This document shows positions 1 to 18,245 of a stretch of DNA of 18,357 nucleotides, in pieces. Origin of the DNA: an uncultured bacterium (GTDB taxonomy: Bacteria > Armatimonadota > Hebobacteria > CAIYQO01); the NCBI GenBank assembly GCA_903928345.1, contig CAIYQO010000315.1:1-18357 (forward strand). The letters are read 5' to 3'. The notes under the pieces are model-generated. The model was not told the origin of the DNA. It did not search any database and was given only the letters and a program-made list of their open reading frames with translations. Position numbers and translations under genes: made by a program. Position 1 is the stretch's first letter. The number at the start of each line of letters is the position of its first letter.

Positions 1-30
1 GTATAGTTGCCAGTGGTGGCAATCAAGTAT

Positions 31-300
31 TCAGTGTATTGGCGTGCGGTGAGCATAGCAGCAACAGGGGTATACCCACTCACCAAAGACACCAAACATT
101 ACGATATCGTTATGGAGTAGCAAAGCGAAAGTCCTAATATTATAGATGGGGATGATGGCAGCCCATCCCGGTCGGCCGGCTTTATCGAAGACCTTCCATG
201 CGCCGGCGATCATTAGGATCACGACCGCGAGCCAAACCAGGCTCATCATGCCGAACATGCCGGCTGCCGCGCCGGCTGCACCTGCAGAACTACTGTCCAT
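31..300 (-). CDS. small integral membrane protein with conserved AWKVF-KAG-PGW-A-IPIYN motif (uncharacterised DUF-type family); possibly 3'-truncated or divergent
   Basis: ORF track 89 aa. AGGAGG lies 5 nt upstream of the ATG at 300 (reverse complement of 304-309). One predicted TM helix (MMSLVWLAVVILMIAGAW) is followed by the motif KVFDKAGRPGWAAIIPIYN, which I recognise from small bacterial membrane proteins. The C-terminal about 30 aa run into an AT-rich block (positions 1-170), lack the remainder of the usual family sequence, and contain an odd CCC run. Confidence 0.45.
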   Translation of the reverse strand: MDSSSAGAAGAAAGMFGMMSLVWLAVVILMIAGAWKVFDKAGRPGWAAIIPIYNIRTFALLLHNDIVMFGVFGEWVYPCCCYAHRTPIH

Positions 301-415
301 GTGTGCCTCCTACTTATGATGTTGATATCCACACGCGGGGACCGCGATGTGTTCCTGGACTTCCTGCCGGACTTCAGCACCGATTCGGGGGCCATCCTGG
401 CGCAGGCTTATTTAT

Positions 416-444
416 ACGATAACGGAAAAGAAGCGGTAATGCAA
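416..444 (-). promoter_or_regulatory. candidate sigma70 promoter for the 31..300 gene (TTGCAT-17-TATCGT on minus strand)
   Basis: The reverse complement of 439-444 is TTGCAT and of 416-421 is TATCGT, with a 17-nt spacer. The -10 is weak. Confidence 0.25.
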
Positions 445-574
445 GAGTGAGGCGGGATTATCTTTTCCGGATGATTATATCAGCCGTCGCACCCTTGACG
501 AGGAAGAGGAAAAAGAGGATAGTTATGGCTACATCGGTTAAATACGCCGGTGAATCCTCCAAGGAGGCCCTGGT

Positions 575-1660
575 ATGAAACGCGGTTTTACTCTTATCGA
601 ACTGCTGGTCGTGATAGCGATCATAGCTATCCTCGCTGCCATTCTTTTCCCGGTCTTCGCCAAAGCGCGCGAAAAGGCCCGCCAGACGAGCTGCCTGAAC
701 AATCAGCGCCAGATCTGCCTGGCGGCGACGATGTACTGCCAGGATCACGACGAGATGTTCCCCACCGCCGACAACTTCTGGGGCGCCATCAGTCTGGACA
801 AGGGTGTGCTCATCTGTCCCACCAAGGGCACCAAGACGCTCAACGGGTATCTGTTCAACGGCGGCGCCAACGGATTTCACATGTCCGGGCGCGCGCTGGG
901 CGAGATCAAGAACCCCTCCACCGCCATGGTCACCGCCGACGGCGTGCTGAACACCATCCCCGCCGGCTGGGAAGACCCCAACGGCGGCACCACGCTGGTG
1001 GGCCACGCGATCACCGAGGCCGTCGACGAGACGCGCCACGGCGGCACCTTCTGCATCTTCGCTTGCCTGGACGGCCACGTGGAAATCGGCACCGCGACGA
1101 ACGTCGAATCCGCCTTCTACGGCGCCGGCGCCTCGCTGCCCGTGTATACGAAGAACCTGATCTGGGAAGACGGCTGGGGCGACGGGGCCAACGGCGTGAC
1201 GAAAGAAGTCACCTCCGTGCCCGGCACGGTACCCTACACCGGCGGCTCCTGCCTGAAGATATGGGGCAACTACTGCCAGTTCAATGGTGCGCAGAACACC
1301 CTCACCTGGCCGGCGGGCATGTCGATCAAGGGGTGGTACTACTTCCCGTCCAACGCGCCGGCGGATGCTACCTTCAGCTACGACGTCTACGGCAACGGCG
1401 GGACGACGGGCGCCACCTGGCAGGGCGCCTATTACGGTACCACCGCGCTGTCGAACCAGGGTACGCCGAAGCAGAAGTCGGCCACCATCGTGCGCGGGGT
1501 CTGGACCGCCTTCACGCTGACAAATACGGACTTCAATACCACGCCGAACCCCTTCGTCCTACCGATCACCATGCCGTCCTCCCCGGTGATGGGCTACGCC
1601 GGCACCGGCGCGGGCATCAACGGGCAGTGCTGCTACGTGGACGGCCTGCGCTTCGAATGA
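575..1660 (+). CDS. DUF1559 (H-X9-DG) domain protein with N-terminal prepilin-type cleavage/methylation signal (type II secretion pseudopilin-like)
   Basis: The N-terminus [28 protein letters not shown] is a classic prepilin leader with a hydrophobic helix. The following [35 protein letters not shown] is typical of DUF1559. The H-X9-DG signature reads ...[18 protein letters not shown] lies 9 nt upstream of the ATG at 575. Confidence 0.9.
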
Positions 1661-1670
1661 CCTGAAGGTT

Positions 1671-1691
1671 TGCAGGGACTGTCCCGTGACG
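1671..1691. repeat. repeat family A copy (TGCAGGGACTGTCCCGTGACG), palindromic core GGGACTGTCCC
   Basis: It starts about 10 nt after the stop of the DUF1559 gene. The same 21-24 nt motif recurs at 1757-1777, inverted at 1791-1812, and again at 18246-18267 and 18334-18357. Confidence 0.7.
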
Positions 1692-1756
1692 TTCCGTGTG
1701 CGCGTTGCGCGACCGTCTGCCTGCTAGCCTGGAAGCAATAACCTGGTATCGGAAGA

Positions 1757-1812
1757 CTACAGGGGCTGTCCCGTGGCGCATTGATAACCTACGCCACGGG
1801 ACAGTCCCTGCA
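1757..1812. repeat. repeat family A hairpin: two inverted family-A copies (19-bp arms, 1 mismatch) around a 13-nt loop
   Basis: ACAGGGGCTGTCCCGTGGCG (1758-1777), loop CATTGATAACCTA, then CGCCACGGGACAGTCCCTGCAG (1791-1812). It lies between the convergent genes at 575..1660 (+) and 1816..2553 (-) and could act as a bidirectional terminator, though no U-tract follows. Confidence 0.7.
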
Positions 1813-1815
1813 GAG

Positions 1816-2553
1816 CTACGCCGGCCGTTCGTCCAGCAAAATCTCCCCCTCGATGCCCACGATGACGCGGTAGAGGGGGATTTCCACCCCGGCGCTTTGT
1901 TGGGCCAGCGTCACCAGGCGTTCCAGCCCGCGGCAGCAAGGCACCTGCATCATCACGATGGTGATGCTGCGCAGGCCGGCCTCGACGATCATGGTCGCCA
2001 GCTTCTCCACGTACCCCTGCGGATCGTCGAGTTTCGGGCAGGCGATGGCCAGTGCGTGGCCGGTGAGGAACTGTCGGTGGAAGTCGCCATGGGCGAAGGC
2101 CGCGCAATCCGCCGCCAGCAGCAGGTCGGCGTCGCGGAAATACGGCGCCGTGGGCGCGACCAGGTGCAGTTGCACCGGCCATTGCGCCAGCGCGCTGGCC
2201 GCGGGGGCCGTCGCCGTCGTGGCGGCAGGGGCTTTGGGCGCGAAGGCGCGCATCTGCGACCCCGGGCACCCGGCGTGGTGCGCGTGCGCGGGGGACGGCG
2301 CCGGGCGGCCCAGCGTCTGCAAGTGCGTCGCCACCGCGGCTTCGTCGAAGGCGGGGGCGTCACGCTCGATGATGGTGATGGCCCCTTGCGGGCAGTCCGC
2401 CAGGCAGGCGCCCAGCCCGTCGCAATAGTCGTCCTTCACCAGCCGCGCCTTGCCGTCGATCAGTTGAATAGCCCCCTCCGCGCAGGAACCGACGCACAGC
2501 CCGCACCCGTTGCACAAGGCCGCCTCGATCTGCACGATCTTGCGTGTCGCCAT
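1816..2553 (-). CDS. 4Fe-4S dicluster ferredoxin-domain protein with Cys-containing C-terminal domain
   Basis: There are two CxxCxxCxxxCP motifs (CNGCGLCVGSCAEGAI and CDGLGACLADCPQGAI). The C-terminal domain carries further conserved Cys (ADCAAF, IACPKLDDP, PCCRG). The start was moved to the internal ATG (MATRKIV...) because GGAGGGGG lies 6-8 nt upstream; the ORF-track start at 2586 has no SD. Confidence 0.8.
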   Translation of the reverse strand: MATRKIVQIEAALCNGCGLCVGSCAEGAIQLIDGKARLVKDDYCDGLGACLADCPQGAITIIERDAPAFDEAAVATHLQTLGRPAPSPAHAHHAGCPGSQMRAFAPKAPAATTATAPAASALAQWPVQLHLVAPTAPYFRDADLLLAADCAAFAHGDFHRQFLTGHALAIACPKLDDPQGYVEKLATMIVEAGLRSITIVMMQVPCCRGLERLVTLAQQSAGVEIPLYRVIVGIEGEILLDERPA

Positions 2554-2815
2554 AGGATACCCCCTCCGTCGCATTGACACCCGCATGATACCACGCGCGG
2601 CGCGCCTTCGCTATGATTTCGGTCATAGGCGCGGCGGGTCTCGCAGCACGCCCCATTTTCCGCCATTCCGCCCCACGCACGATTTTGCGCGATTTTTGCG
2701 TCAAAACGTAACAAAAGAAAACTCGTGTTTGCATGTTGGTAACAAGCGTGTGCATTGGTGACCGAAAAAAGGTGGAAAAGGAGGCAAAAAATATCGCTTG
2801 CTTCCTTACCGAGCT

Positions 2816-2845
2816 ATTGACAGCCCGGCGGGGGGCGGCGTAAAA
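2816..2845 (+). promoter_or_regulatory. near-consensus sigma70 promoter upstream of mraZ (TTGACA-18-TAAAAT)
   Basis: TTGACA at 2816-2821, an 18-nt GC-rich spacer, then TAAAAT at 2840-2845. The predicted TSS is about 2852, about 44 nt upstream of the mraZ ATG. Confidence 0.55.
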
Positions 2846-2881
2846 TGGCGCTGTCCGGTGGAAAATGGCGCGATCCGGCGA
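2843..2881 (+). promoter_or_regulatory. 20-bp tandem direct repeat (AAAATGGCGCnnTCCGGYG x2) overlapping the -10/TSS; candidate MraZ operator
   Basis: AAAATGGCGCTGTCCGGTGG at 2843-2862 is followed directly by AAAATGGCGCGATCCGGCG at 2863-2881. MraZ is known to autoregulate through direct repeats in its own promoter in E. coli. GGTGGAAAA also occurs at about 2771. Confidence 0.45.
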
Positions 2882-2895
2882 ATTGCGGGACTTGT

Positions 2896-3339
2896 ATGGG
2901 CGTTTACGGCGAATCCGAGCATCAGATCGACGATAACGGTCGCATCAATATCCCTCGTCGTTTTCAAGCATTGTTTGAACACGGGGGCTTCCTCACTCGC
3001 GCCTTAAACAGCCTGTCGCTGGTCTATTACACGCACGCGGCGTGGCAGGAGATTCAGGATCGGCTCAACGCCGTCGATTTCTCCGAGCAAGCCGCCGACG
3101 ACGTGGCCCGCTACTTCAGCATCGGCACGGAAGTGCGCTTGGACGGGCAGGGCCGGCTGACGATTCCGCCCAACCTGCGCCGCCGCGCCAACCTGGACAA
3201 AGACTTGACGTTGCTCGCCATCGGCAATCGGCTGGAGATCTGGAACTCCGCGGCCTGGCAGGCCTACGACAACGAACGTTTGACGCCCGGCAATTTGGGG
3301 CAAGCCCTGAGCGCGCTCAACCCGCGCCGTGCGGGCTGA
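2896..3339 (+). CDS. mraZ: transcriptional regulator MraZ
   Basis: It carries the duplicated MraZ/SpoVT-AbrB-like halves with signature GESEHQIDDNGRINIPRRF and DGQGRLTIPPNLRRR. The start was moved from the ORF-track ATG at 2845 to the ATG at 2896 (MGVYGESEH...), which matches the usual MraZ N-terminus and lies downstream of the predicted TSS. rsmH follows. Confidence 0.85.
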   Translation: MGVYGESEHQIDDNGRINIPRRFQALFEHGGFLTRALNSLSLVYYTHAAWQEIQDRLNAVDFSEQAADDVARYFSIGTEVRLDGQGRLTIPPNLRRRANLDKDLTLLAIGNRLEIWNSAAWQAYDNERLTPGNLGQALSALNPRRAG

Positions 3340-3354
3340 CCGCGGAGCCCGGCT

Positions 3355-4317
3355 ATGGACCGTGACAATGTAGAAACCGGAGCGGTGGACGCTCTCCACC
3401 ATGAGCCGGTCATGCTCGCCGAAGTGCTGGCGTACCTGGATCCCCAACCGGGGAAGACCATCGTAGACGCCACGCTGGGCGGCGGGGGCCATGCGCACGC
3501 CATTTGCGAGCGCCTCGGCCCCACGGGCCGCCTGATCGGCCTCGAGCAGGACGCCGACGCGCTGGCGCGGGCGCGGCGCCGGCTACACGGCTTTCCGGTC
3601 ACCTACGTGCACGAGAACTTTCGGCACCTTGACAACATCATATCGCATCTTGACCTCGGCTCCGTTGACGGGTATTTCTTCGACCTGGGGGTTTCTTCCT
3701 TCCAGCTCGACACCCCGGAGCGCGGATTCAGCTTTCGCTTCGACGCCCCGCTGGATATGCGCATGGACACCCGGATGCCCGACACCGCCGAGGACTTGAT
3801 TAACCGGATGACGGAGAGTGAGCTTATGCACATTTTTCTCGAATCCGGTTATGGACGGTGGGCGCGACGCCTGGCCAAAGCTGTTACCACGTCTCGGCAA
3901 CTATCACCGATCACCACGACCGCCACATTCGCCGCTTTAATCGCCGCAACGATTCCCGGACACCATCACAGCAAGATTCACCCTGCGACCAAGGCCTTCC
4001 AGGCCTTAAGGATCGCTGTCAATGATGAGATCGCCGCCCTGCATGCCGCATTGATCGCCGCCACCCATCACAGCAACGTCGCCGCACGCATTGTCGTCCT
4101 GTCCTACCACAGCTTGGAGGATGGAGAAACGAAACGGACGTTCCAATACCTCGCCGGCCGGCGTCCGCCCCCGTCCAATCCCTATGACCCGGAGCCTCCT
4201 GCCTTACCGCAGTTGCTCTCCGTGCTCACGAAAAAACCGTTGATCCCGTCGCCGGAAGAGATCCGGCGCAATCCGCGCAGTCGCAGCGCCAAGCTGCGCG
4301 CCGCGGAACGACTGTAG
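3355..4317 (+). CDS. rsmH: 16S rRNA (cytosine1402-N4)-methyltransferase RsmH (MraW)
   Basis: Motifs HEPVMLAEVL, DATLGGGGHA, DLGVSSFQLDTPERGFSF, DMRMD, SYHSLEDG and NPRSRSAKLR are all present. The position after mraZ is conserved. Confidence 0.9.
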   Translation: MDRDNVETGAVDALHHEPVMLAEVLAYLDPQPGKTIVDATLGGGGHAHAICERLGPTGRLIGLEQDADALARARRRLHGFPVTYVHENFRHLDNIISHLDLGSVDGYFFDLGVSSFQLDTPERGFSFRFDAPLDMRMDTRMPDTAEDLINRMTESELMHIFLESGYGRWARRLAKAVTTSRQLSPITTTATFAALIAATIPGHHHSKIHPATKAFQALRIAVNDEIAALHAALIAATHHSNVAARIVVLSYHSLEDGETKRTFQYLAGRRPPPSNPYDPEPPALPQLLSVLTKKPLIPSPEEIRRNPRSRSAKLRAAERL

Positions 4318-4538
4318 CCCCGCGCCTTTCCCGGGTATGGGCCACGCGCCCGTGCCTTGTCCGGCCAAGTCGGCCGGGCTGTGTCCCGAATCCCCAAACC
4401 GCGTGTGTTCGCGGGGCGTGGATGCCTGAGGGTCGCCTCGGGTATCGCCCCATCGTCGCCGTTCGACTTTTGCCGACGGGCTCGTCCCGTCTCCTAGCCC
4501 GCTCATTGCAACATCGCGTCATACCCGAGGTGGCCGTC

Positions 4539-5057
4539 ATGGCAGCTCTTGCGCAACGCACAGTTTGGTTGGAACCCGACGTCACCACCGAATCACCGGC
4601 GGTGGCGGTACGCCCTCGTCGGCGCACCCGCACTACCCCGCTCCTGTGGTCTCATACCGCCGTCGCCGTCAGCGTCGTCGCGCTCGGTGCGGCGTTGCTC
4701 CTCGCCTACGTGCATAGCTACGCGCGCCTGGCGGAGGGGGAATTCCACCGCCAGCGCCTGCAGACGGAGATCGCCCAACTGCAGCGCGACAACATCGCCC
4801 TCGGCCTGGAACTCGACCGGCTGGGCGCGCAGGCGCGCGTCTCCGAGTTGGCCAAGGCGCAGGGTCTGGAACTGCCCACCATGGACCGCGTGCAGTATGC
4901 CCGCGTGACGGCCCCCGCCGCCGTGGTCGTGGCGCAAGCGCCCAAACCCGCCCACTCCTGGCTGGCGCGGGCCGGCGCGTCCTTCCTGACCGCCATGGGA
5001 CACACCGTGCAGCGCATCAGCCGCGGTCCCGGCACACCGGCCTACGCGCAGGATTAA
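4539..5057 (+). CDS. ftsL: cell division protein FtsL-like (septum formation initiator family; single TM plus coiled coil)
   Basis: It sits between rsmH and ftsI. It has a TM helix (AVAVSVVALGAALLLAYV) followed by a leucine-zipper-like coiled coil (RLQTEIAQLQRDNIALGLELDRLGAQARVSELA). The start was chosen at the ATG at 4539, with GAGGTGG 8 nt upstream; the ORF-track start at 4422 gives an unlikely 39-aa extension. Confidence 0.65.
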   Translation: MAALAQRTVWLEPDVTTESPAVAVRPRRRTRTTPLLWSHTAVAVSVVALGAALLLAYVHSYARLAEGEFHRQRLQTEIAQLQRDNIALGLELDRLGAQARVSELAKAQGLELPTMDRVQYARVTAPAAVVVAQAPKPAHSWLARAGASFLTAMGHTVQRISRGPGTPAYAQD

Positions 5058-5143
5058 CCCGGTGGGCCGGCGGGCAAGAGAGAGACAGCCGCGCCGCGCC
5101 CCCGCCGACCGGCGGGACGCCGCGCTACAGCGTAATTCTGGTC

Positions 5144-5175
5144 GCGACATCCCTTGCCCCGGCAAGGGATGTCGC
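5144..5175 (+). promoter_or_regulatory. perfect 15-bp-stem hairpin (GCGACATCCCTTGCC cc GGCAAGGGATGTCGC) in the ftsL-ftsI spacer; possible attenuator or terminator
   Basis: It is a perfect inverted repeat. Only a weak U-tract follows (TGTTAACGGGTT). It lies 87 nt after the ftsL stop. Confidence 0.5.
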
Positions 5176-5180
5176 TGTTA

Positions 5181-5250
5181 ACGGGTTCAACGTTGAAGGT
5201 GCAAAGTTGAGCGTGCTGCTACCCGTTGAACGTTGAACTTTGCACGTTGC
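5181..5250 (+). promoter_or_regulatory. cluster of palindromes and direct repeats (TTCAACGTTGAA perfect 12-bp palindrome; GTGCAAAGTT / AACTTTGCAC inverted pair) immediately upstream of ftsI
   Basis: ACGGGTTCAACGTTGAAGGTGCAAAGTTG ... ACCCGTTGAACGTTGAACTTTGCACGTTG: two about 27-nt segments that are partly direct and partly inverted copies of each other. This looks like a protein operator or an RNA structure. A weak TTGAAC-18-TATTTC promoter candidate lies at about 5234-5263. Confidence 0.4.
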
Positions 5251-5300
5251 ACTCCGTATTTCGGTACGCGGAACCGGCGTTGCCATGAGGGAACCGGCAG

Positions 5301-7952
5301 ATGGCGACCTGGCTTTCAGGATACAGTCGACAACATCGCACCATCCGGCGCAACGCCGTCATCTGGTGCGGCATCTTCGCGGCGGTCTTTCTCTTGTTGG
5401 GCTGCCGCCTCCTCTGGTTGCAGACGGTACGCGGCCACTTCCTGCAGGCGCAGGCGGCGAGCTACATCAACCGCATCGAAGTGCTGGCCGCCCGCCGCGG
5501 CGAATTGCTCGACCGCGACCACAAGGCGCTGGCCCTCGACGACACCCGCGACTCCCTCTACGTCGATCCCGAGATGGTGGATAACGCCGCCTTCGTCGCC
5601 GGCCAACTGGCGCCGGTGATCGGCCGCCCGGAGCAGGAGATCGTCGACACCATCACCCGGCAGCTCCCCTTCATCTGGATCAAGCAAGCCATCGCGCCCA
5701 CCATCGCCACCACCGTGGACAGCCTGAAACTGCCCGGCGTCACCGTACAGGCGGACGGCGCGCGTTACCGCGTGGGTGCCAACCCGGCGTTGCTGCCGGC
5801 GAGCACCGGCGTGGCCGCCGCGCTGGCCACCGCCGCGGGGATGAAGCAGGCGACGCTGATCACGGCGTTGGGCATCCCCACCGCGCTGCCGCAGGAACAG
5901 AGCGGTCCGGTGGATCCGGAAGCCGACATGCCGGCCAAAGGCGCCCCCGCAAAACACGCCGCCAAGGTGGCGAAGCCCGCTCCCGCCCCCGTGAAGCCGC
6001 TGCCCCCGCCCCCGTCGGAGCAACGCTGGCTGCCGGGCGAGTTCAACGAGGCCTCGGCCAACGCGGTGCAGGCGCTGCACTTCACCGGTGTCACGGTGGA
6101 GAAGCTCGGTCCCAGCTTTTCCGTGGGTGTCGACCCGCGCCTCTACCTGAACCACACCGCGCCGATGACCGCCGACGCCGTGGCCGACCGCCTGGCGCCG
6201 CTCCTCGGTATGACCCACGACGCCGTGGTGCGCCGCCTGCTCTTCAAGCCGCGCTTCGCCTGGCTCTACCGCGGCCTTTCCGAGGAGATGAGCAACGCGG
6301 TGCAAAAGCTGCAGGGCACCTTCTACGTGCTCACGCCGGGCATCGCCGCCAGCGTCCCGTTGAAGGACGAGAAGACGGCGGACCCCGAGGCGCGCCTGAC
6401 GGCCGTGGTGGAGCGGCTGTATAAGATGATCAACCCGCAGCCGAAGCACGTGAAGCGCGGCCAGACGCCGGAGCCGGTAGTGGAGCTGATCTCCCATGAC
6501 GCGATCCGCGCCAAGCTGGTTGCCGGAGCGGCGCCCGGGCCGCTCATCGAGAAGCTCGATGACGGCCGCCCGGTGCTCTCCATCATCCGCCGCCTGAAGC
6601 AGGAGCCCATCCCCGGCGTGGTCTACGGCCTGCCGGGCGTGAGCACCAAGCAGGAGCGCCGCCGCCGCTACCCGTTCAGCAACATGGCCTCCGCCACGCT
6701 GGGCTTCGTGGGGTATTGGAACGACGCCTTCCACGGCGCCTTCGGGCTGGAACAGTCGGAGGACAAGACGCTGCGCGGCGAAGATGGCAAGATCAAACGG
6801 GAGATCGACACCCATCGCATGTCCATCCCCGAAAGCGACGTAATGCTGAAGGCGCCGGTGAACGGCTGCAACGTGGTGACCACGCTGAGCACCGACATCC
6901 AGCAGGTGGCGGACGACGAGTTGGGCAAGGCGGTGGACGCCACCCACGCGCTGCGCGGCGCCTGCGTGGTGATGGATTGCAACACCGGCGAGATCCTCGC
7001 CATGGCGACCTACCCGAACTGGGACGCCAACGCGCCGGGGAAATCCACGCTGCCGCTGGTGCACACCGCGGTGAGCAACTGGTACGAGCCGGGTTCGACC
7101 TTCAAAACGATGACCGTGCTGGCCGCGTTGGAGGAAGGCACGATCCACGACGGGGAGAACGTGACGTACTGCTCCGGCGCCCTGACGGTGGGCAACCACA
7201 CCATTCACGAGGCGCACGGCGCGCACGGCGAGGTGGACTGCGGGCGCCTGCTGGAGCAGTCCTGCAACCTGGGTGCCGCCACGCTGGCCATGAAACTCGG
7301 CCCGACGCGCTTCCTCAAGTGGTGCGACCGGCTGGGCTTCGGCAAGCCGACGGGGGTCGAGATCGCTAACGAATCCACCGGTTCTCTCAACCGCCTTAAC
7401 TGCGAGCGCGCGAAGATCACGCTGGCGAACGAGGGGTTCGGGCAGAGCATGGCCGTCACCCCACTGCAGATGCTCGCGCTCTACTCCGCCGTGGCCAACG
7501 GCGGCTACCTGGTGAAACCGCACCTGGTGAGCGCGCGCGAGCTGCCCGACGGCAGCTATCAGCCGGTGACCACGACGCGTACGCGGGTGTGCAAGGCGGA
7601 AACCGCCTCACTGATGCGCGGCTACCTGGAGCGGGTGGTCACCAAGGGCACCGGCAAGGCCGCCGCCATCCCCGGCTACCGCATCGGCGGCAAAACGGGC
7701 ACCGCGCAAAAGGCCGGCGTGGGCGGCTTCCGCCCCGGCAAGTATATCGGCAGCTTCATCGGCTTCCTGCCGGTGGAAAAGCCCCGCCTCGCCATCGTGG
7801 CCCTTATCGACGAGCCGCAAGGCGCCCACTACGGCGGCGTGATCGCCGCCCCGGTGGTCAGCGCCGTAGGCCGCCGCGCCATGGAATTTCTCAGCATCCC
7901 GCCCTCGAAGATCGTCACCACGAAAACGGCGAAACCCGCGGCTGAGCATTGA
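5301..7952 (+). CDS. ftsI: peptidoglycan D,D-transpeptidase FtsI / class B penicillin-binding protein with greatly expanded N-terminal module
   Basis: The N-terminal TM anchor is VIWCGIFAAVFLLLGCRLLWL. The transpeptidase motifs are SxxK (EPGSTFKT), SxN (EQSCNLG) and KTG (GGKTGTA). Its position after ftsL is conserved. At 883 aa it is about 300 aa longer than typical FtsI; the extra sequence precedes the transpeptidase domain and includes a Pro/Ala/Lys-rich linker (KGAPAKHAAKVAKPAPAPVKPLPPPPSEQ). Confidence 0.9.
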   Translation: MATWLSGYSRQHRTIRRNAVIWCGIFAAVFLLLGCRLLWLQTVRGHFLQAQAASYINRIEVLAARRGELLDRDHKALALDDTRDSLYVDPEMVDNAAFVAGQLAPVIGRPEQEIVDTITRQLPFIWIKQAIAPTIATTVDSLKLPGVTVQADGARYRVGANPALLPASTGVAAALATAAGMKQATLITALGIPTALPQEQSGPVDPEADMPAKGAPAKHAAKVAKPAPAPVKPLPPPPSEQRWLPGEFNEASANAVQALHFTGVTVEKLGPSFSVGVDPRLYLNHTAPMTADAVADRLAPLLGMTHDAVVRRLLFKPRFAWLYRGLSEEMSNAVQKLQGTFYVLTPGIAASVPLKDEKTADPEARLTAVVERLYKMINPQPKHVKRGQTPEPVVELISHDAIRAKLVAGAAPGPLIEKLDDGRPVLSIIRRLKQEPIPGVVYGLPGVSTKQERRRRYPFSNMASATLGFVGYWNDAFHGAFGLEQSEDKTLRGEDGKIKREIDTHRMSIPESDVMLKAPVNGCNVVTTLSTDIQQVADDELGKAVDATHALRGACVVMDCNTGEILAMATYPNWDANAPGKSTLPLVHTAVSNWYEPGSTFKTMTVLAALEEGTIHDGENVTYCSGALTVGNHTIHEAHGAHGEVDCGRLLEQSCNLGAATLAMKLGPTRFLKWCDRLGFGKPTGVEIANESTGSLNRLNCERAKITLANEGFGQSMAVTPLQMLALYSAVANGGYLVKPHLVSARELPDGSYQPVTTTRTRVCKAETASLMRGYLERVVTKGTGKAAAIPGYRIGGKTGTAQKAGVGGFRPGKYIGSFIGFLPVEKPRLAIVALIDEPQGAHYGGVIAAPVVSAVGRRAMEFLSIPPSKIVTTKTAKPAAEH

Positions 7953-8119
7953 CTTGCAGGGGCTATCCCCAATACGGTTCAGCTAAGCGTTTCGCGCTCC
8001 CGCGCGACCCCCGCCGCCCCGCTTGTTCCCCCCCAACAACAGATGTTCCGGTTGCGCGCGCACGCGGGGGGGATGATGGCAGTACGCTGTAGGATATTCG
8101 CGCAGGAAGGGGGCGCAGC

Positions 8120-9271
8120 ATGCTGTCCGGCCGGAGTTTTCGCCTGGGGCGCATCGGCGGCATCACGATCAACATCGACTACACCTGGTTCATCATCTTT
8201 GCACTGTTTGTCTTCCTGCTTGCCACCGCCTACTTCCCCGCGGTGCTGGCGCATGTGCCGCACCCCGCGTCCCCGTTGATGGTGTGGGGCACGGCGGTGC
8301 TCACCAGCGTGCTCTTTTTCGGCTCTGTGCTCGCGCACGAATTGTCCCACTCCTTCGTGGCGCGGCGGCACGGCATCCCCATCAACAGCATCACCCTGTT
8401 TATCTTCGGCGGGGTGGCGCAGATGGAGGACGAGCCGCAGACGCCGGGCGACGAATTCAAGATGGCGATCGCCGGGCCGCTGGCGAGCATTGCCATCGGG
8501 GTGCTCTTCATCATGCTCCTCGCCGGTGCGCACAACGTGCTGCCGCCGCTGGCCAACGCGGCGCTGTGGTATCTGGGCGCCATCAACATCATCCTCGCCG
8601 TCTTCAACCTGTTGCCTGGCTTCCCGCTGGACGGCGGGCGCGTCTTCCGCTCCCTGGTGTGGGCCATCACGCATGACCTGCGCCGCGCCACGCAGATCGC
8701 CTCCATCACCGGGCAGGGGTTCGGGTGGATCTTCATCGTCCTCGGCCTTGCCAGCCTGGTGGTGCCCGTGCTGGGCAAATACATCACGGTGTGGATGGCG
8801 CTGATCGGTTGGTTTTTGGTAAGCGCGGCGCGCAGCAGCTACCAGCAAGTAGTAATGCGCGATACCCTGAGCCACGTGCCGGTGCGCGACGTGATGCACC
8901 CGACCGTGGAGGCCGTGCCCGCCACGCTGTCGGTGCAGCAACTGGTGACGGACTACTTTCTGCGCGGCAGCTCCAGCGCGTTGCCGGTGGAGCTGAACGG
9001 CACGGTGACCGGCGTGGTAGGGGTGGAGGACGTGCAGGCGCTGCCGCGTGACGCGTGGTCGGGCACGCTGGTGAGCGAAATCGCCCGCCCACTCACCCAG
9101 GAGCAAACGCTGCACCCCGACGACGACGCCTGGGCCGCCACCAGCCGCATGGCGCACGGCAACCGCGACCGCGTGCTCATCACCGAAGGCGACCACGTGG
9201 AAGGCATCGTCACCCGCGGCAGCATCCTGCGCTGGTTGCAGACGCATAAGCCGGGGTTCGCGACGGGGTGA
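8120..9271 (+). CDS. site-2 protease family (peptidase M50) membrane metalloprotease with C-terminal CBS domain pair
   Basis: HExxH appears as AHELSHS within a TM region. The second zinc-ligand/LDG motif reads NLLPGFPLDGGRV. There are multiple TM helices. The C-terminal about 130 aa resemble a CBS pair (VRDVMHPTVEAV...; GVVGVEDV...; VEGIVTRGSILRWL). GGAAGGGGG lies 6 nt before the ATG. Confidence 0.85.
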   Translation: MLSGRSFRLGRIGGITINIDYTWFIIFALFVFLLATAYFPAVLAHVPHPASPLMVWGTAVLTSVLFFGSVLAHELSHSFVARRHGIPINSITLFIFGGVAQMEDEPQTPGDEFKMAIAGPLASIAIGVLFIMLLAGAHNVLPPLANAALWYLGAINIILAVFNLLPGFPLDGGRVFRSLVWAITHDLRRATQIASITGQGFGWIFIVLGLASLVVPVLGKYITVWMALIGWFLVSAARSSYQQVVMRDTLSHVPVRDVMHPTVEAVPATLSVQQLVTDYFLRGSSSALPVELNGTVTGVVGVEDVQALPRDAWSGTLVSEIARPLTQEQTLHPDDDAWAATSRMAHGNRDRVLITEGDHVEGIVTRGSILRWLQTHKPGFATG

Positions 9272-9300
9272 GCTTTCCGCCTCTCGCGTGACGTTTATCG

Positions 9301-9355
9301 GTCAGCGTGCCCTCACCCCCCGCCCCCTCTCCCAAAGGGATGAGGGCACGCTGAC
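9301..9355 (+). terminator. 15-bp perfect-stem hairpin with 25-nt C-rich loop, 30 nt after the M50 stop (possible terminator; no U-tract)
   Basis: GTCAGCGTGCCCTCA (9301-9315) pairs with TGAGGGCACGCTGAC (9341-9355). The loop CCCCCCGCCCCCTCTCCCAAAGGGA contains a TCCC/GGGA mini-stem. Confidence 0.4.
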
Positions 9356-9416
9356 GGACAGGCGTCCCAAACAAAACAGCAAAGGCGGTAGTCCCTCTCG
9401 TATAGCAAACATATGC

Positions 9417-9445
9417 TTGACATTGCCCTCCTTTTCTGCTATACT
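9417..9445 (+). promoter_or_regulatory. consensus-like sigma70 promoter (TTGACA-17-TATACT) upstream of the terminase fragment
   Basis: TTGACA at 9417-9422, a 17-nt spacer, then TATACT at 9440-9445. The ORF-track start at 9413 overlaps this promoter, so the real start is probably the ATG at 9515, preceded by GGAGGGGAA. Confidence 0.55.
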
Positions 9446-9514
9446 CCAGCCCTTCCAGGCATGAGGCGGAGGGGCGCCAGTGCCGCGGGGTTCACTTTCG
9501 GGGGGAGGGGAACG

Positions 9515-10249
9515 ATGCGGCAAGAGACGGCGACGCGCCCGTTGACCGATGTGGCGCGGGAGGAGCTGGGGGCGTTCGGCACGCAGGTCTTCGACCTGTG
9601 GCCGGCGGCGCACCACGAGGTGTGGGTGGAGCTGCTAAGCGACCCGCGCCTCAACCGGCTGCTCATCATCGCGCCGCCGGGCCATGCCAAATCCACCTGG
9701 TGCACCATCATCTACCCCGCGTGGCTGGTGGGGCGGCAACCCTCCGTCAATATCCTCCTCGTCTCCGCCACCGCGGCGCAGGCCCGGCTCTTCAGCGCCG
9801 GGGTGCGCGAAGCGGTGGTGGGCAGCCCCGCCTTCGCCGACATCTTCCCGGGTCTCGCGCCCGACCGCAAACGCGGCTGGGGGCAGAACGCGTGGTTCGT
9901 GCAGCGCCCGCCGGATAGCAACAAGGACGCCACTGTGGCCGCCTGCGGGGTAGGCGGGCCGCTCATCGGGCGCCGCGCCGACGTGATCATCGTCGACGAC
10001 CCCTGCGACCAGGCCAACACCACCACCGTAGCGCGCCGCGACAAGCTGTGGCAGTGGTTCCGCCAGACGCTGCTCACCCGTCTGCGCCCCAATGGCCGCG
10101 TGATCGTGGTGATGACCCGCTGGCACGAAGACGACCTGGCCGCCCGCCTGATCCGCAGCGGCGAATTCGCCGTCTGCCACCTGCGCGCCCTCAGCGACGG
10201 CCCCGACGTGCGCGCGACGCTCACCGTGCCGGGGGCGGTGCTGGGGTAG
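9515..10249 (+). pseudogene. phage terminase large subunit, N-terminal ATPase fragment (gene interrupted after the ATPase domain)
   Basis: Walker-A-like LIIAPPGHAKST, Walker B VIIVDDP and the terminase coupling motif TRWHEDDLAARL are present. The frame ends at the TAG at 10247-10249. The rest of the protein continues 128 nt downstream in another frame. Confidence 0.7.
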
Positions 10250-10289
10250 CGGATTGCCACCCCTACCTGTTATCGCCCCCCACCTCCGA

Positions 10290-10324
10290 CCCCTCCCCCG
10301 CAACGTCCTGTGGCGGGGGAGGGG
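10290..10324. repeat. hairpin family B copy 1 (CCCCTCCCCCGC - 11 nt - GCGGGGGAGGGG) inside the terminase-disrupting insert
   Basis: 12-bp perfect stem. The family recurs at 10360-10394 and 11265-11309. Confidence 0.65.
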
Positions 10325-10359
10325 AGAACAGAAATGCGAATAGTTTTCGATAATCATCT

Positions 10360-10394
10360 CCCTTCCCCCGTCACACGATGTTACGGGGGAAGGG
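10360..10394. repeat. hairpin family B copy 2 (CCCTTCCCCCGT - 11 nt - ACGGGGGAAGGG)
   Basis: 12-bp stem with an 11-nt loop. The loop contains the first ATG of the nuclease fragment. Confidence 0.65.
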
Positions 10395-11136
10395 CCGGGG
10401 ATGGGGGGCCGTCTTTCCGAAAGGGTACCAAATGCCGGACATCCTCATCCATCGCCGCGGCCCCGCGTTGTGGCCGGAGGTGTTTCCGCTCAAGCTGCTG
10501 CAGACGTTGAAGCGCGAGTTGGGGTCGCTGCTGTTTGAGACGGTGTACCAGGGGGAGCCGTCGCCGGCGCAAGGCACGGTATTTCAGCGCGGCTGGCTGG
10601 CGAGCTACACGGAGACACCGCGCGCGCTGGAGATCGGCCAAGCGTGGGATACCGCGTTGAAAGGCGGGCAGGAACACGACTACTCCTGCTGCGTGACGGG
10701 CGGGCGCGACGCCGACGGGCGGGTGTTTATCCTGGACGTGTGGCGCGGGCAGGTGGAGGCGCCGGCGCTGGGCCGGCAGGTGCTCATGCTCGCGGAACGG
10801 CACCAGCCGCGCTGGGTGGTGATGGAAGACGCCGGGGCGGGGGCCATGCTGCTGCAACAGATTCGCGGCCGCCGCCTGCCGATGATCCCCGTGACGCCGG
10901 TGAAGGACAAGCGCTTCCGCGCCGGAGTGGTGGCGCCGCTGGTGGAGCGCGGCGACGTGCGCCTGCCCGTCTACGCCCCGTGGCTGGAGGATTTCATGGG
11001 CGAATTACTCGGCTTCCCCGCGGGGCGGCACGACGACCAGGTGGATGCCTTCGTGCACCTGCTCACCCGCTTCGCCGCCCACTCCCCGCTACCCATGACC
11101 GACTGGGGACGCATCCAGCGGCCGGAGGGGTGGTAG
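10378..11136 (+). pseudogene. phage terminase large subunit, C-terminal nuclease fragment
   Basis: The linker/nuclease-domain motifs LWPEVFPLKLLQTLKRELGSLLFETVYQGEP and GRHDDQVDAFVHL (terminase RNaseH-like nuclease) are present. The frame is open from 10354 and differs from that of the ATPase fragment. There is no SD in front and no other phage structural genes in the window. Confidence 0.7.
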
Positions 11137-11187
11137 ATGGGGAATGCAAAGTGAAAAATGGAGAATGGAGAATGCAGAATGGGGGAC
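11118..11187 (+). repeat. about 70-bp direct repeat, copy 1 (GCGGCCGGAGGGGTGGTAGATGGGGAATGCAAAGTGAAAAATGGAGAATGGAGAATGCAGAATGGGGGAC); overlaps terminase last codons + stop; contains tandem NAGAATG heptamers
   Basis: It is about 97% identical to 13462-13532 (1 mismatch, 1 indel). Weaker similarity extends about 25 nt further upstream: the terminase ends ...DWGRIQRPEGW*, and the region before copy 2 reads ...DVRGAIRRPEGW* in frame. Confidence 0.8.
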
Positions 11188-11264
11188 TTACCCCGGCCTC
11201 AGAGGCGTTAGCTACTGTCACGGCTGGTCCGTTCTCCAACCCGACGATAAATCGTCAGTTGGGA

Positions 11265-11309
11265 CCCCCCCTCCCCCGCTAAGACTTGAAGACTTGCGGG
11301 GGAAGGGGG
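11265..11309. terminator. hairpin family B copy 3 (CCCCCCTCCCCCGC - 16 nt - GCGGGGGAAGGGGGG); likely bidirectional terminator between terminase fragment (+) and flotillin (-)
   Basis: 14-bp GC stem followed by CTTTTCC on the plus strand. It lies 8 nt from the flotillin stop. The loop contains AGACTTGAAGACTT. A further small palindrome CCAACCCGACGATAAATCGTCAGTTGG lies at about 11236-11263. Confidence 0.45.
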
Positions 11310-11316
11310 GCTTTTC

Positions 11317-13341
11317 CTACATCCGCGGTGCCGACGGGCCGCCGGACTCATCGCGGGGGTTTTGCGCCGGTTCCGTGCCTTCTACCGTCGTCGTTTCTAC
11401 CACGGACGTCGCTGCTGTACCTATGGGCGTCGTGCCCAGGTATTTCATCAGGGAGGCGGCCAGGCCATCGAGCGATCCACCCCCGCCGGTGACCAGGATA
11501 TCCGGCACGAACTTCATGTTCCCTTCCGCCAGCGCGGTGACGGCGTTCACCAGTGCGGTGGGCGCCTGTCCTAACGCCTGCACTTGCGCCTGGTAGGCTT
11601 TCGCGCGGGCCAATCCCACGGCTTCCACCTCGGCACCCTTGGCGGCGCCGGTTTCACGGATATAGGTGGCTTCGCCGTCCGCTTTGGCTTTCTGCGCGTT
11701 GGCGTTGTTCGTCTCGATATCCACGTTCACCCGCGACTGCGCCAGTTTGGCCTGCATATCCGCGGTACCCTTTGCCTGTTCCATGGAGATGCGCTGCTCT
11801 TCCGCGGCACGCTGTTTTTCGTAGGTCTCGATCTCCTGGAAGGCGATTTCGCGCTGGGTCAGCACGCGCACCATGTCATCGGGGAGGATCACGTCCTGGA
11901 TGTAGACGCCCTTCGTCTCCACCTGGTATTCGGCCAGTTGCGAGGCGATATGCGCGAAGGCTTCCGCCTGCACTTCCTGGCGCGTCTCGATGAACCTGAT
12001 CGCCGGCATGCTCTGCAATTTATCGCGGAAATGGTTGCCCACCGCGGCCTGCAACACTTCGTTGACCAGATTGTACATGGTGCCCACGCTGGAGATCACG
12101 CGCGGGGCCTTGGTGTCGGGCACGTGAATCTGCACCTGCAGGTCGAACTTGAAGACGAAGCCTTCCCGGCTTTTCGCTTCGATGGGCTGCAGGCGGCTGT
12201 CCAGGTTGTGCGCCTGGGAGACCACGTCCGCCCAGTTGATGGTGAGGATGGCCGTGGGCACGATTTCCGCCTGGTAGACGCGCGGATTGATGGGGTATTT
12301 CCCGGTGCGCAACGGCTCCTGCCAGATGCCGCGATGGCCCGGGCGCACCAGACTGCCATATTTGAAATCCACCCCGGAGGTGTCTTTGGTCACCAGGCCG
12401 ACATAGGCCTTGATCACCGCGACTTCGCCCTGCTGCACCACCAGCATCGGCACCATCTCCACGGACACCAGGAAGGGGTTCAGCGCGTAGGCGCCATAGA
12501 GCAGCGGGTCGTGCTGCAAGCCGATTTTGCCGCCATTGGTGAGGAAGGCCTGGAAATCCTGGTAGTTGTTGTGAAGGTTATTCATGTTACCGAGCAGCCG
12601 CTCGATAACTTCCGCGTCGTTCGCTTTGTCATTCTCCATCTTATCGATGTCATCGAAGCCACCCAGGCGGCAGGCGATGTCGCCCGCCGGCAAGGGATCG
12701 CCTTCATAGGCCGTGACGATGCCGATGGCATCCAGCATATTGCCGCCGGGTCCGGTCGGCTGCGGTTGAATGCGCACCAGTTCCAACTGTTCAGGACGCA
12801 AGCCGAAGGATTCCGGCACCAGGCGACGCTGGGCATCCACCTGCAATTGCGACGACGAGATGGGCACGCCATACACCTGCCGTTTGGTGATGACCAGAAA
12901 GCCCACCGGATGAATCGGCATCAAGGTCCCCGGCGGGAAGACGGGACGCTGGACGCCCTTTTGCCCCCCACGCTGAATGAAGGCGCGCAGGTCGCTGAAG
13001 TTGGCGAACTCGTTTTTATAGATGGCGGATTTCGCGCCGATGGGCAAAGATGACCCCACCTGCGCGATCACCACGCCTATCTCGTTGGCCGGCACCTGCA
13101 CCCAGGGGAATTTCTCGATCTTGTAGAGAATGGCCAACTTGAAGCGCAATCCGGGCATGAGGAGATCGGCCTGATAGCCGGCTTCGCCGTGAAAGGCAAT
13201 GGGGTTGTCTTCCATCAGCCGTTTGAAGCTGAAGCGTTTCGTCACCAGGCCGACCTGGGTCGGGCCGATCGAACGGAACGAGAAGAGGAGAATGAGGGCA
13301 ACCGCGATCCCTGCCGCCCACAACAATGTTACAAGATCCAT
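11317..13341 (-). CDS. flotillin-like SPFH/band-7 domain protein (YqiK/FloT-type) with long C-terminal coiled coil
   Basis: It has an N-terminal TM (LLWAAGIAVALILLF), an SPFH-like core, and an extended Ala/Gln/Glu-rich coiled-coil region (EIETYEKQRAAEEQRISMEQAKGTADMQAKLAQSR...AKAYQAQVQALGQA) typical of bacterial flotillins. AAGGAGG lies 7 nt upstream of the ATG. Confidence 0.8.
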   Translation of the reverse strand: MDLVTLLWAAGIAVALILLFSFRSIGPTQVGLVTKRFSFKRLMEDNPIAFHGEAGYQADLLMPGLRFKLAILYKIEKFPWVQVPANEIGVVIAQVGSSLPIGAKSAIYKNEFANFSDLRAFIQRGGQKGVQRPVFPPGTLMPIHPVGFLVITKRQVYGVPISSSQLQVDAQRRLVPESFGLRPEQLELVRIQPQPTGPGGNMLDAIGIVTAYEGDPLPAGDIACRLGGFDDIDKMENDKANDAEVIERLLGNMNNLHNNYQDFQAFLTNGGKIGLQHDPLLYGAYALNPFLVSVEMVPMLVVQQGEVAVIKAYVGLVTKDTSGVDFKYGSLVRPGHRGIWQEPLRTGKYPINPRVYQAEIVPTAILTINWADVVSQAHNLDSRLQPIEAKSREGFVFKFDLQVQIHVPDTKAPRVISSVGTMYNLVNEVLQAAVGNHFRDKLQSMPAIRFIETRQEVQAEAFAHIASQLAEYQVETKGVYIQDVILPDDMVRVLTQREIAFQEIETYEKQRAAEEQRISMEQAKGTADMQAKLAQSRVNVDIETNNANAQKAKADGEATYIRETGAAKGAEVEAVGLARAKAYQAQVQALGQAPTALVNAVTALAEGNMKFVPDILVTGGGGSLDGLAASLMKYLGTTPIGTAATSVVETTTVEGTEPAQNPRDESGGPSAPRM

Positions 13342-13461
13342 CGTACGCCTCCTTATACCTTGCGTGTAACACGTTTAACTAACTTCGACGCCTCCGGCGG
13401 GGGTTCCTGCTTCCAGTATGCCGACATCCAGTCGGCGCGTGGATGTCAGGGGGGCCATTCG

Positions 13462-13532
13462 GCGGCCGGAGGGGTGGTAGGTGGGGAATGCAAAGTGAAA
13501 AATGGAGAATGGAGAATGCAGAATGGGGGGAC
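13462..13532 (+). repeat. about 70-bp direct repeat, copy 2 (same orientation as 11118-11187)
   Basis: See copy 1. It lies in the spacer between the two minus-strand genes, upstream of the flotillin start. Confidence 0.8.
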
Positions 13533-13550
13533 AACCGCACCCCGTTCGAC

Positions 13551-13578
13551 ATTTTCCATTCTCCATTGTGCATTGCCG
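13551..13578. repeat. inverted partial copy of the NAGAATG heptamer array (CATTTTCCATTCTCCATTGTGCATTGCC)
   Basis: Its reverse complement GGCAATGCACAATGGAGAATGGAAAATG matches AATGCA.A.TG.A.AATGGA.AATG in 13485-13525. With the 25-nt spacer (containing GGGGTGCGGTTGTCCCC) it can form a long imperfect stem-loop just 3' of the 13589..14425 gene on the minus-strand transcript. Confidence 0.55.
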
Positions 13579-13588
13579 CAACGCGACC

Positions 13589-14425
13589 CTATTTTTTCAC
13601 CAGCGTCGACTTGCTGCGGGTGTATTGCAGGTCGACGGTGGCTTTGCGGTGTTCCAGTTGGGCGAGGCTGAGTTCGATGATCTCCTCGGCCTCGTAGGTG
13701 CTCATGGTGCCGACGGTGACCATGTCGCAGTCGCGCAGGGTGTTCCACACGAAGGCCATGCCGGTGGGGGGCAGCAGACGGCCCGCGGCGAGGGGCTTGA
13801 TGGTCATCACGGGGCATTTGGCGTTCTGGATGGTTTGCCCAATCCAGTCCGTCTCCACCTGGCACAGGAAGCCGGCGGCGTTGTACGGGGTGATGTACGT
13901 TGCCACGTCGGCGTCGCAATTGTCGGCGCAGAGGATCGCCTCCGGGTTGTGCGAACTCAGGCCGGGCACCAGCCCCATGGCGCGCACGATGCGCAGCAGC
14001 TCCGCCAAATCCGGCGCTAGGCAGGTATTCACGCGGTCGAGCCGTGGGTCGGTGGTGCACTGGTGCGGAAAACAGAAGGTGGCGCCGAAGTCGATGCACT
14101 CCTGCACGGTGCGTTTCCAACCGTCGTAGCCGCCTGACATCTCCCAGTGCGGCGTGCACACCCAGAGCATCCGCTCGCCGGTGCGCTGCTCCACCTCGCG
14201 CAGCGCGTCGGCGGTGAAGACGCTCTGCATGCTCATGAAGGCGTTGCAGCCGGCGCGCGCGAAGACTTCGATCACGTCGGCCATCTTCTTCGGCGTGTCG
14301 AACATCTCCTTGATCAGCCGATCCTTGGCGCGACTGGTGTGGGAGAAGCCCAGGAACCAGTTGCTGCCGCAGATCAGCCGCGGCATGGAGACCCCACCGA
14401 CATCGGTGCGTGGAAACCCACTCAT
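13589..14425 (-). CDS. hypothetical Cys-rich soluble protein (13 Cys; no family recognised)
   Basis: The long ORF shows coding-like composition. The start was chosen at the internal ATG (MSGFPRT...), which has GAGAAGGGGGC immediately upstream. Candidate motifs are PRLICGSNWFLGFSH, FCFPHQCTTD and ILCADNCDAD. I could not assign it to a known family from memory. Confidence 0.55.
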   Translation of the reverse strand: MSGFPRTDVGGVSMPRLICGSNWFLGFSHTSRAKDRLIKEMFDTPKKMADVIEVFARAGCNAFMSMQSVFTADALREVEQRTGERMLWVCTPHWEMSGGYDGWKRTVQECIDFGATFCFPHQCTTDPRLDRVNTCLAPDLAELLRIVRAMGLVPGLSSHNPEAILCADNCDADVATYITPYNAAGFLCQVETDWIGQTIQNAKCPVMTIKPLAAGRLLPPTGMAFVWNTLRDCDMVTVGTMSTYEAEEIIELSLAQLEHRKATVDLQYTRSKSTLVKK

Positions 14426-14458
14426 AATGCCCCCTTCTCGAGACAGGACTGACACCCG

Positions 14459-14487
14459 ATTTTACCGGAGTTTGCCGCCGCTGTCAC
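14459..14487 (-). promoter_or_regulatory. candidate sigma70 promoter for the 13589..14425 gene (GTGACA-17-TAAAAT on minus strand)
   Basis: The reverse complement of 14482-14487 is GTGACA and of 14459-14464 is TAAAAT, with a 17-nt spacer. The TSS would lie about 27 nt upstream of the ATG. Confidence 0.45.
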
Positions 14488-14709: not shown

Positions 14710-14756
14710 AACCATGTCAGCGGGAATTAGGACCCCGCTGAAGGGAGGTGTCCCTG

Positions 14757-15152: not shown

Positions 15153-15170
15153 CCGGTCGCCGACATGCAC

Positions 15171-18240: not shown

Positions 18241-18245
18241 AAAAC

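Follow-up and report, generated by a model that had tools for sequence, protein, structure and literature searches.

A composite palindromic repeat close to stop codons in a contig of an uncultured member of the Armatimonadota

The subject of this analysis is a short, composite, palindromic repeat that occurs twice in a contig of 18,357 nt (CAIYQO010000315.1, positions 1 to 18,357, assembly GCA_903928345.1) from an uncultured bacterium of the Armatimonadota (Hebobacteria; CAIYQO01). We refer to this whole stretch as the window; homologues of its RsmH place it among uncultured Armatimonadota. The first copy (element 1) takes up the whole of the 155-bp gap between two convergent genes, located at 575-1660 on the plus strand and at 1816-2586 on the minus strand. 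The former, with its stop codon at 1658-1660, encodes a protein with a prepilin-type N-terminal methylation motif and a DUF1559 N-terminal fragment, and the latter, with its stop codon at 1816-1818, encodes a 4Fe-4S dicluster domain protein as judged from a domain match. The second copy (element 2) follows a plus-strand gene at 15418-18240 (stop codon 18238-18240) for a conserved protein of 940 aa with no assigned function, the C-terminus of which, ...WGFVE before the stop, is ancestral. An earlier interpretation of this DNA, made from the letters alone and referred to here as the sequence-only reading, had labelled this gene a hydrolase, a label that is unsupported, as the protein has no Pfam or NCBIfam match. 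It is on record at 100% identity (P0121; NCBI and ENA), where its longest contig measures 18,357 nt, the length of the window, and only distant homologues (~30% identity) carry PF06452. Between the two elements lie the core dcw (division and cell wall) genes mraZ, rsmH, ftsL and ftsI, as well as an SPFH gene and a split gene for a phage large terminase.

The repeat is built from a 22-nt unit, YTRYAGGGRCTGTCCCGTRRCG, of which a repeat search (family D4) found five copies in the window. Exact matches to its 18-nt core, AGGGRCTGTCCCGTRRCG, are located at 1674-1691, 1761-1778, 18250-18267 and 18338-18355 on the plus strand and at 1792-1809 on the minus strand. These five exact matches may be compared with a mean of 0.20 matches in 200 dinucleotide shuffles of the window, scored with up to 3 mismatches. 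None of the 200 shuffles reached the observed core count and none reached 6 matches at up to 3 mismatches. The repeat pairs noticed in the sequence-only reading are real, and their coordinates hold. Element 1 contains three units. Unit A (1670-1691, plus strand, TTGCAGGGACTGTCCCGTGACG) is of the solo type and begins 9 nt beyond the final base of the DUF1559-type gene's stop codon. Unit B (1757-1778, plus strand, CTACAGGGGCTGTCCCGTGGCG) and unit B' (1792-1813, minus strand, which reads CTGCAGGGACTGTCCCGTGGCG) are the left and right arms of a hairpin, and B' is 2 nt from the stop codon of the 4Fe-4S gene. Element 2 is represented by unit C (18246-18267, plus strand, CTGTAGGGACTGTCCCGTAACG), again of the solo type, which begins 5 nt past the stop codon of the 940-aa gene, and by unit D (18334-18355, plus strand, CTGCAGGGGCTGTCCCGTGGCG), which presumably forms the left arm of a second hairpin. 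Only 2 nt of the window follow unit D, so that the contig stops within the predicted loop of this second hairpin. Unit D had been described as cut off by the window; the DNA does stop there, but this is the true end of the contig and the unit is complete. Assemblers tend to break at repeats or palindromes, and the assembly was probably broken by one or the other at this point.

Comparison of the five units reveals a pattern in their variation. They are found at two loci 16.5 kb apart, beside unrelated genes, and are 77-95% identical; the hairpin-arm units (B and D, 95%; B' and D, 95%) are more alike than the solo units (A and C, 86%), with A and B at 82%. The variable positions all differ by transitions. 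Several variants are specific to a position and are common to both elements, the solo units reading GGGACT...GTRACG and the left arms GGGGCT...GTGGCG. The units have a G+C content of ~73%, against 58-61% in the spacers between them. The core of the unit, GGGACTGTCCC, is a perfect palindrome in A, B' and C and an imperfect one, GGGGCTGTCCC, in B and D, so that its description as palindromic applies in full to three of the five copies. Each single unit holds only a 5-1-5 dyad, GGGAC-T-GTCCC. When folded as DNA, single units yield -2.5 to -4.9 kcal/mol, with z values of -0.2 to -0.7 relative to shuffles. Since a single unit thus folds no better than its shuffles, it is not a stem-loop of the classical repetitive extragenic palindromic (REP) type, and it looks more like the putative duplex binding site of a dimer, or a terminal repeat.

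A stable structure appears when two units are combined. Units B and B' (1757-1778/1792-1813) pair as a hairpin whose 22-nt arms show 91% complementarity and enclose a 13-nt loop (I15), the latter occupying positions 1779-1791 and reading CATTGATAACCTA. The hairpin has 19 consecutive pairs, including one G.T, and its DNA fold of -24.6 kcal/mol has a z value of -7.1. This agrees with the hairpin claimed earlier, with the correction that its arms are 22 and not 19 nt long. RNA folding of the whole 171-nt region of element 1 resulted in z values of -4.6 for the plus strand and -4.7 for the minus strand. A and B' are complementary as well, with 27-nt arms (1666-1692/1791-1817) that match at 89% (I9).

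The two spacers that separate the direct units are almost equal in length and have no sequence kinship. Spacer S1, between A and B, is 65 nt (1692-1756) and has no significant fold (z -0.9), and spacer S2, between C and D, is 66 nt (18268-18333). The start-to-start distances are therefore 87 nt for A and B and 88 nt for C and D. Global and local alignments of S1 with S2, on both strands, gave scores that fell within the distributions from shuffles. This bears out the earlier claim of a conserved length without a conserved sequence, for two spacers in all, though not the claim that both are 66 nt. Folding of the spacers alone, or of the solo unit together with its spacer, detected no significant structure. 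Inspection of S1 suggests a possible decayed inverted unit, A' (1703-1724, minus strand, CGTTGCGCGACCGTCTGCCTGC), with ~17 of 22 positions matching and a 2-nt gap; its local alignment score has p ~0.01 against 1000 shuffles, with ~4 effective tests. If A' is accepted, element 1 may comprise two tandem doublets, one of which has eroded. No such decayed inverted copy was found in S2.

As the sequence-only reading had proposed, the repeat is extragenic and sits at gene 3' ends: three stop codons lie 2, 5 and 9 nt from the nearest units. All five units are located in gaps that hold gene 3' ends only, while the window's divergent (promoter) gaps, four in number, and its five tandem gaps contain none, a placement that involves two sites and is not statistically meaningful. 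Both elements are oriented alike relative to their upstream gene and begin 5-9 nt after a stop codon. A terminator scan of the window does not call the B/B' hairpin, which lacks the U-tract of a canonical intrinsic terminator, a T-run being absent after it on both strands. Canonical terminators consisting of a hairpin and a U-tract are themselves not enriched in the window (11, compared with 12.7 expected from shuffles), and this lack of an excess leaves room for U-less hairpins such as those of the tuberculosis rho-independent terminator (TRIT) family of Mycobacterium. Several of the 3' gaps in the window hold long GC-rich hairpins or repeats instead of canonical terminators. No promoter-like site was seen when the element was scanned.

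The distribution of the repeat outside the contig was addressed with loci of relatives, L094-L098 and L104-L110, to which RsmH and the 940-aa protein had led; all but L109 and L110 were scanned. No unit was present at up to 5 substitutions in ~100 kb of non-duplicate sequence (138 kb summed, which includes three near-duplicate pairs), and Smith-Waterman comparisons with L094, L104, L097, L105, L106 and L107 returned background scores only. The closest relative (JGI sample 3300042261), with amino-acid identities of 83% for RsmH and 79% for the 940-aa protein, has no unit in 31.6 kb. In its locus L104 the next gene begins 24 nt after the orthologous 940-aa gene, with no element between them. This orthologue (10001-12820) is split by an in-frame stop codon into 796 and 130 aa.

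The 24 nt that follow the orthologous stop codon in L104 (12818-12850) deserve comment. Their sequence, CGCTGTACCGCGGGAGGCTGTCCCATG, supplies the next gene with its Shine-Dalgarno sequence and start codon, and resembles CTGTAGGGACTGTCCCGT of unit C, with an alignment score of 20 that is matched at only ~13 places in 112 kb. For that one pre-chosen place the likeness has p ~0.003, in a test that was post hoc. At the corresponding place after the orthologous stop codon in a more distant relative (L109, 8824-8850) the sequence is TAGCGCGAGGCTGCC / CGCGAGGCTGCCGAGG. The L104 sequence may be what is left of a unit, an ancestral stretch from which the element was seeded or to which it was attracted, or a chance likeness.

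Searches of metagenome, viral, phage and plasmid collections and of Rfam gave no further copy. The additional DNA recovered from the same organism consists of a 2.4-kb ENA contig (L093, 99.96% identical); a second short ENA contig (up to 3.1 kb) is implied by the cluster member P0184, and the organism is also represented in ENA assembly ERZ27313096. A scan of 596 Gb of genome contigs with an 18-mer pattern, which is too short for a collection of this size, gave at least 90 stretches with a single chance match each, for example one in WD40 coding sequence (L042). A metagenome scan with the hairpin pattern gave two spurious matches, one in coding sequence (L091) and one at a palindromic contig end (L092). 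The latter contig (Ga0255182_1007901, 3680-3733) ends in a perfect long palindrome containing CTGTCCCGTGACG, which looks like an assembly fold-back artefact. Five matches in a viral collection were likewise single and attributable to chance, and BLAST of element 1 against phages and plasmids gave no match. Rfam, at both gathering and E-value thresholds, returned only generic miRNA-hairpin noise far below the cut-offs. Peptides translated from the hairpin, searched for open reading frames (ORFs) that read through other copies, gave nothing, and a search with natural-frame peptides had as its single match a genuine Ig-repeat adhesin (P0180). Mini-ORFs starting from the GTG of the unit were rejected as inconsistent between units: they run to 13, 3 and 2 codons, and unit C lacks a start codon. 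Literature searches with motif strings, and for Armatimonadetes together with REP, found nothing relevant on such repeats in the Armatimonadota. The description of the repeat as genome-specific thus stands for the ~100 kb of relatives and the public collections, and it is lineage-specific only as far as has been seen.

We file the element as a short interspersed extragenic palindromic repeat that lies outside every named family, and on present evidence it is probably ordinary. The interpretation that we favour, with a confidence somewhat short of even, is that it is a dispersed palindromic repeat, non-coding and restricted to its lineage, of the kind represented by REP doublets forming hairpins (REPINs) and miniature inverted-repeat transposable elements (MITEs), tolerated at gene 3' ends, the hairpin of which serves as a U-less terminator or stabiliser like TRIT. 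Such a repeat would be mobile and presumably multicopy across the genome. The GGGAC-N-GTCCC dyad of the 22-nt unit would be recognised by a trans-acting enzyme, a transposase or recombinase whose gene lies elsewhere in the genome and which would propagate the repeat now or would have done so in the past. The best-conserved part, the inverted doublet (22 + 13 + 22 nt), would probably be the unit that propagates, and the upstream solo units would be accessory or decaying copies. Copies would persist in gaps that contain nothing but gene 3' ends, because insertion there would be harmless. The 19-22-bp GC-rich hairpin, if transcribed from both strands, could then act as a bidirectional 3'-end terminator or RNA stabiliser that dispenses with a U-tract.

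The conservation of the units is relevant to this proposal. REPIN theory predicts that doublets should be better conserved than singlets (PMC3116915), and the greater similarity among the arm units than among the solo units fits this expectation. The weak A' in S1 is likewise consistent with a second, eroded doublet. The resemblance to REPINs extends further, to ~20-nt extragenic units, to the inverted doublet that forms a hairpin in single-stranded DNA or RNA, to the presence of two inverted units by which REPINs are defined, to a spacer or loop that is less conserved than the units and to a family that is lineage-specific. It differs in that a single unit is not a stable stem-loop, in the 13-nt loop and in the extra direct unit 65-66 nt away. 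Like classical REPs, which number tens to hundreds per genome, the units are extragenic and are found at 3' ends and between convergent genes, but a unit forms no stable stem-loop of its own. Like the REPs and bacterial interspersed mosaic elements (BIMEs) of E. coli, the units are clustered in these places; in BIMEs, however, the linkers are conserved motif types and the REPs alternate, whereas here the orientation is + + - and the linker is not conserved. As a whole, therefore, the REP/BIME-like assignment of the sequence-only reading was reasonable and is partly supported: a real extragenic family with an inverted-doublet hairpin exists, but the single unit does not fold and the linkers are not conserved.

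Two other comparisons bear on the favoured interpretation. With MITEs, for example the Correia elements of Neisseria, element 1 shares a size of ~145-150 bp, terminal inverted repeats of 22-27 nt (A/B'), a lack of coding capacity, a position next to genes and an RNA hairpin. It differs from them in having no target-site duplication, unrelated interiors and an internal third copy of the terminal repeat; a MITE-like family represented at 15170-15326 in the window, by contrast, keeps part of its interior between genomes. The TRIT of Mycobacterium is a palindromic hairpin conserved in sequence and structure, whose 147 copies occupy a narrow range of positions at stop codons (Gardner et al. 2011, PMC3152330). 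The present repeat resembles it as a conserved bidirectional hairpin, lineage-restricted, in a narrow window at stop codons of a G+C-rich host, from a small number of sites. TRIT is a single hairpin, whereas the present element is a composite of a solo unit, 65-66 nt and a hairpin, documented at two sites; it showed no similarity to TRIT in sequence, and Rfam returned no match for it.

A number of observations weigh against the repeat being a dispersed element of the REPIN/MITE kind. Only two elements are known, both in one 18-kb contig. Their spacers are equal in length (65 and 66 nt) yet unrelated, and a replicating unit that extended from A to B' ought to retain the sequence of its interior. 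The flanks show no target-site duplication: they offer only AGGT and AGCT, with no direct duplication of at least 2 nt beyond what extension of the inverted repeat explains. Unlike classical REPs, a single unit is not a stable stem-loop. The ORFs tested in the window include no gene for a transposase, REP-associated tyrosine transposase (RAYT) or recombinase, and none for a phage integrase, Cas, tnpB or iscB. In REPIN systems the RAYT gene, for a Y1/HUH transposase (PF01797), is flanked by the REPs. Finally, the position-specific variants shared by the two elements hint at constraint on the whole composite, which fits a functional module better than selfish DNA.

This last point leads to the strongest of the alternatives, which we consider rather unlikely, namely that the element is a selected, cis-regulatory 3'-end module. 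A dimeric factor would bind the GGGAC-N-GTCCC dyads, as DNA or as double-stranded RNA, at sites held 87-88 nt apart from start to start, and the hairpin would terminate or stabilise the upstream mRNA in the manner of a TRIT-like, factor-assisted terminator. The constant length and free sequence of the spacer are what would be predicted for two sites that must be held at a given distance. In accord with this proposal, both elements have the same orientation to the upstream gene and both begin 5-9 nt after its stop codon, the shared variants include a G.U at an equal stem position in the plus-strand RNA, and the variable positions are all transitions. The 147 TRIT copies of M. tuberculosis, for which recognition by a sequence-specific factor was proposed, provide a precedent (PMC3152330). 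Arguing in the opposite direction are the small number of cases (n = 2), the unrelated functions of the two genes that would be served, the lack of significant structure in the solo unit and its spacer, and the fact that no candidate binding protein is known. Further, the absence of the element after the orthologous gene in the closest relative argues against a regulatory feature of long standing at that gene. The module and the dispersed repeat that we favour are not mutually exclusive.

The unrelated segments between conserved units also recall NIMEs (neisserial intergenic mosaic elements), in which short repeats with dyad ends, dRS3, flank unrelated segments of 50-150 bp, RS (PMC1797815). 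A NIME-like mosaic would consist of palindromic-ended repeats that are targets of a site-specific recombinase and bracket arbitrary 50-150-bp segments, arrays being formed by repeated recombination. The 5-1-5 dyad units and the unrelated 65-66-nt segments match this form, and the higher G+C content of the units resembles the G+C wave of dRS3 and RS (PMC1797815). On the other hand, there are only 2-3 units per site and no long arrays, the third unit is inverted after a 13-nt gap, and the length of the segment is fixed, whereas RS segments form repeat families of 19-214 bp (PMC1797815). Moreover, the dRS3 consensus ATTCCC-N8-GGGAAT is not shared, NIMEs are not seen outside Neisseria (PMC1797815), no link to a recombinase is known, and no recombinase or integrase gene is nearby, the only phage gene in the window being the split terminase. 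For these reasons a NIME-like origin is improbable. We assign a similarly slim chance to a more general proposal, that the 22-nt handles, with their position-specific variants, and the terminal hairpin bracket a length-constrained, sequence-free segment of 65-66 nt and that selection or a dedicated enzyme keeps this fixed geometry, which would then not be that of decaying selfish DNA. Such a module would be a recombination cassette of the NIME type, here outside Neisseria, or else an RNA of the handle-variable-hairpin kind with no relation to CRISPR.

The remaining alternatives fare worse. Inverted pairs of DNA uptake sequences (DUS) can act as terminators in Neisseria, and the present repeat could by analogy be an uptake signal arranged in inverted pairs that double as terminators. 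An inverted pair does follow a gene here, and the host encodes many prepilin-type or pilin-like proteins. This proposal is very improbable, as the 22-nt unit exceeds known uptake signals in length, all five copies are outside coding sequence although uptake sequences often occur within genes, and the close relatives, which would be expected to share the signal, lack it. A degenerate CRISPR-like or other guide-RNA cassette, in which conserved handles would flank a variable "spacer" of fixed length, is barely credible: unrelated spacers of equal length between conserved repeats are indeed present, but the 22-nt repeats enclose spacers of 65-66 nt and each site has just two direct units, the third being inverted after 13 nt, where a CRISPR array has at least three direct repeats of 23-55 nt with uniform spacers of ~26-72 nt and usually cas genes, the window contains no cas, tnpB, iscB or recombinase genes, Rfam yields nothing and the element has no promoter-like site, so that the exclusion of CRISPR in the sequence-only reading is confirmed. 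We also rejected further candidates. The att sites of an island spanning 1.7-18.3 kb, or the ends of a multi-site transposon, are incompatible with the geometry, the intervening core dcw genes and the unrelated spacers. Integron attC sites, which have the form R''/L''...L'/R' with RYYYAAC...GTTRRRY cores and belong to co-oriented cassettes, are incompatible with the lack of a GTTRRRY core at either end, the convergent flanking genes and the dcw genes of the region.

The window and the loci of relatives contain other repeats as well. The MITE-like element mentioned above lies just upstream of the 940-aa gene (15170-15205/15291-15326) and has a homologue in the closest relative (L094, 7939-7972/8054-8087) that is placed elsewhere, with parB on one side and a GFO_IDH gene on the other. 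In the two copies the arms measure 34-36 nt, are 94-97% complementary and lie 81-85 nt apart; conservation is confined to these arms and an inner hairpin, GGTCTGTACGTG...CACGTACAGACC, outside which the copies have diverged. A direct repeat of 81 nt, 93% identical and containing GGAGAATGGAGAATG, brackets the SPFH/Band-7 gene (11317-13341, minus strand), its copies being at 11105-11185 and 13449-13529. A partial inverted copy (13540-13572) comes after the second of these, and the first overlaps the end of the ORF for the C-terminal part of the terminase. The terminase itself is represented by adjacent ORFs (9413-10249 and 10378-11136) that match the N-terminal (ATPase) and C-terminal (nuclease) halves of a phage large terminase (phrog_38, 260-481 and 476-713). 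This lone, split gene, with no other recognisable phage genes nearby, is probably a prophage remnant. The divergent gap between the ORFs at 7979-9247 (minus strand) and 9413-10249 (plus strand) holds an inverted repeat, 9290-9319/9337-9366, with 30-nt arms that are 83% complementary and 17 nt between them. In another relative (L097), inverted-repeat elements analogous to the repeat that brackets the SPFH/Band-7 gene, TTAGAAGTTAGGAG..., are found at 11831-11947 and 15281-15403. The contig and its relatives thus hold other hairpin elements of ~120-155 bp with terminal inverted arms. One of them recurs elsewhere in the genome of the closest relative, and, judged by these sequence comparisons, small non-autonomous elements are evidently active in this lineage.

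The repeat could have a practical use: the contig ends inside a copy, so the repeat probably breaks assemblies and would be a useful marker for binning and scaffolding the genome of this organism. The length-constrained, sequence-free spacer, seen in two instances, is the only feature that could lift the element above the ordinary. If confirmed genome-wide, the family would document a REPIN/TRIT-like repeat in the Armatimonadota, and it would provide a handle on transcript ends in a G+C-rich lineage that, in this window, has no excess of canonical terminators.

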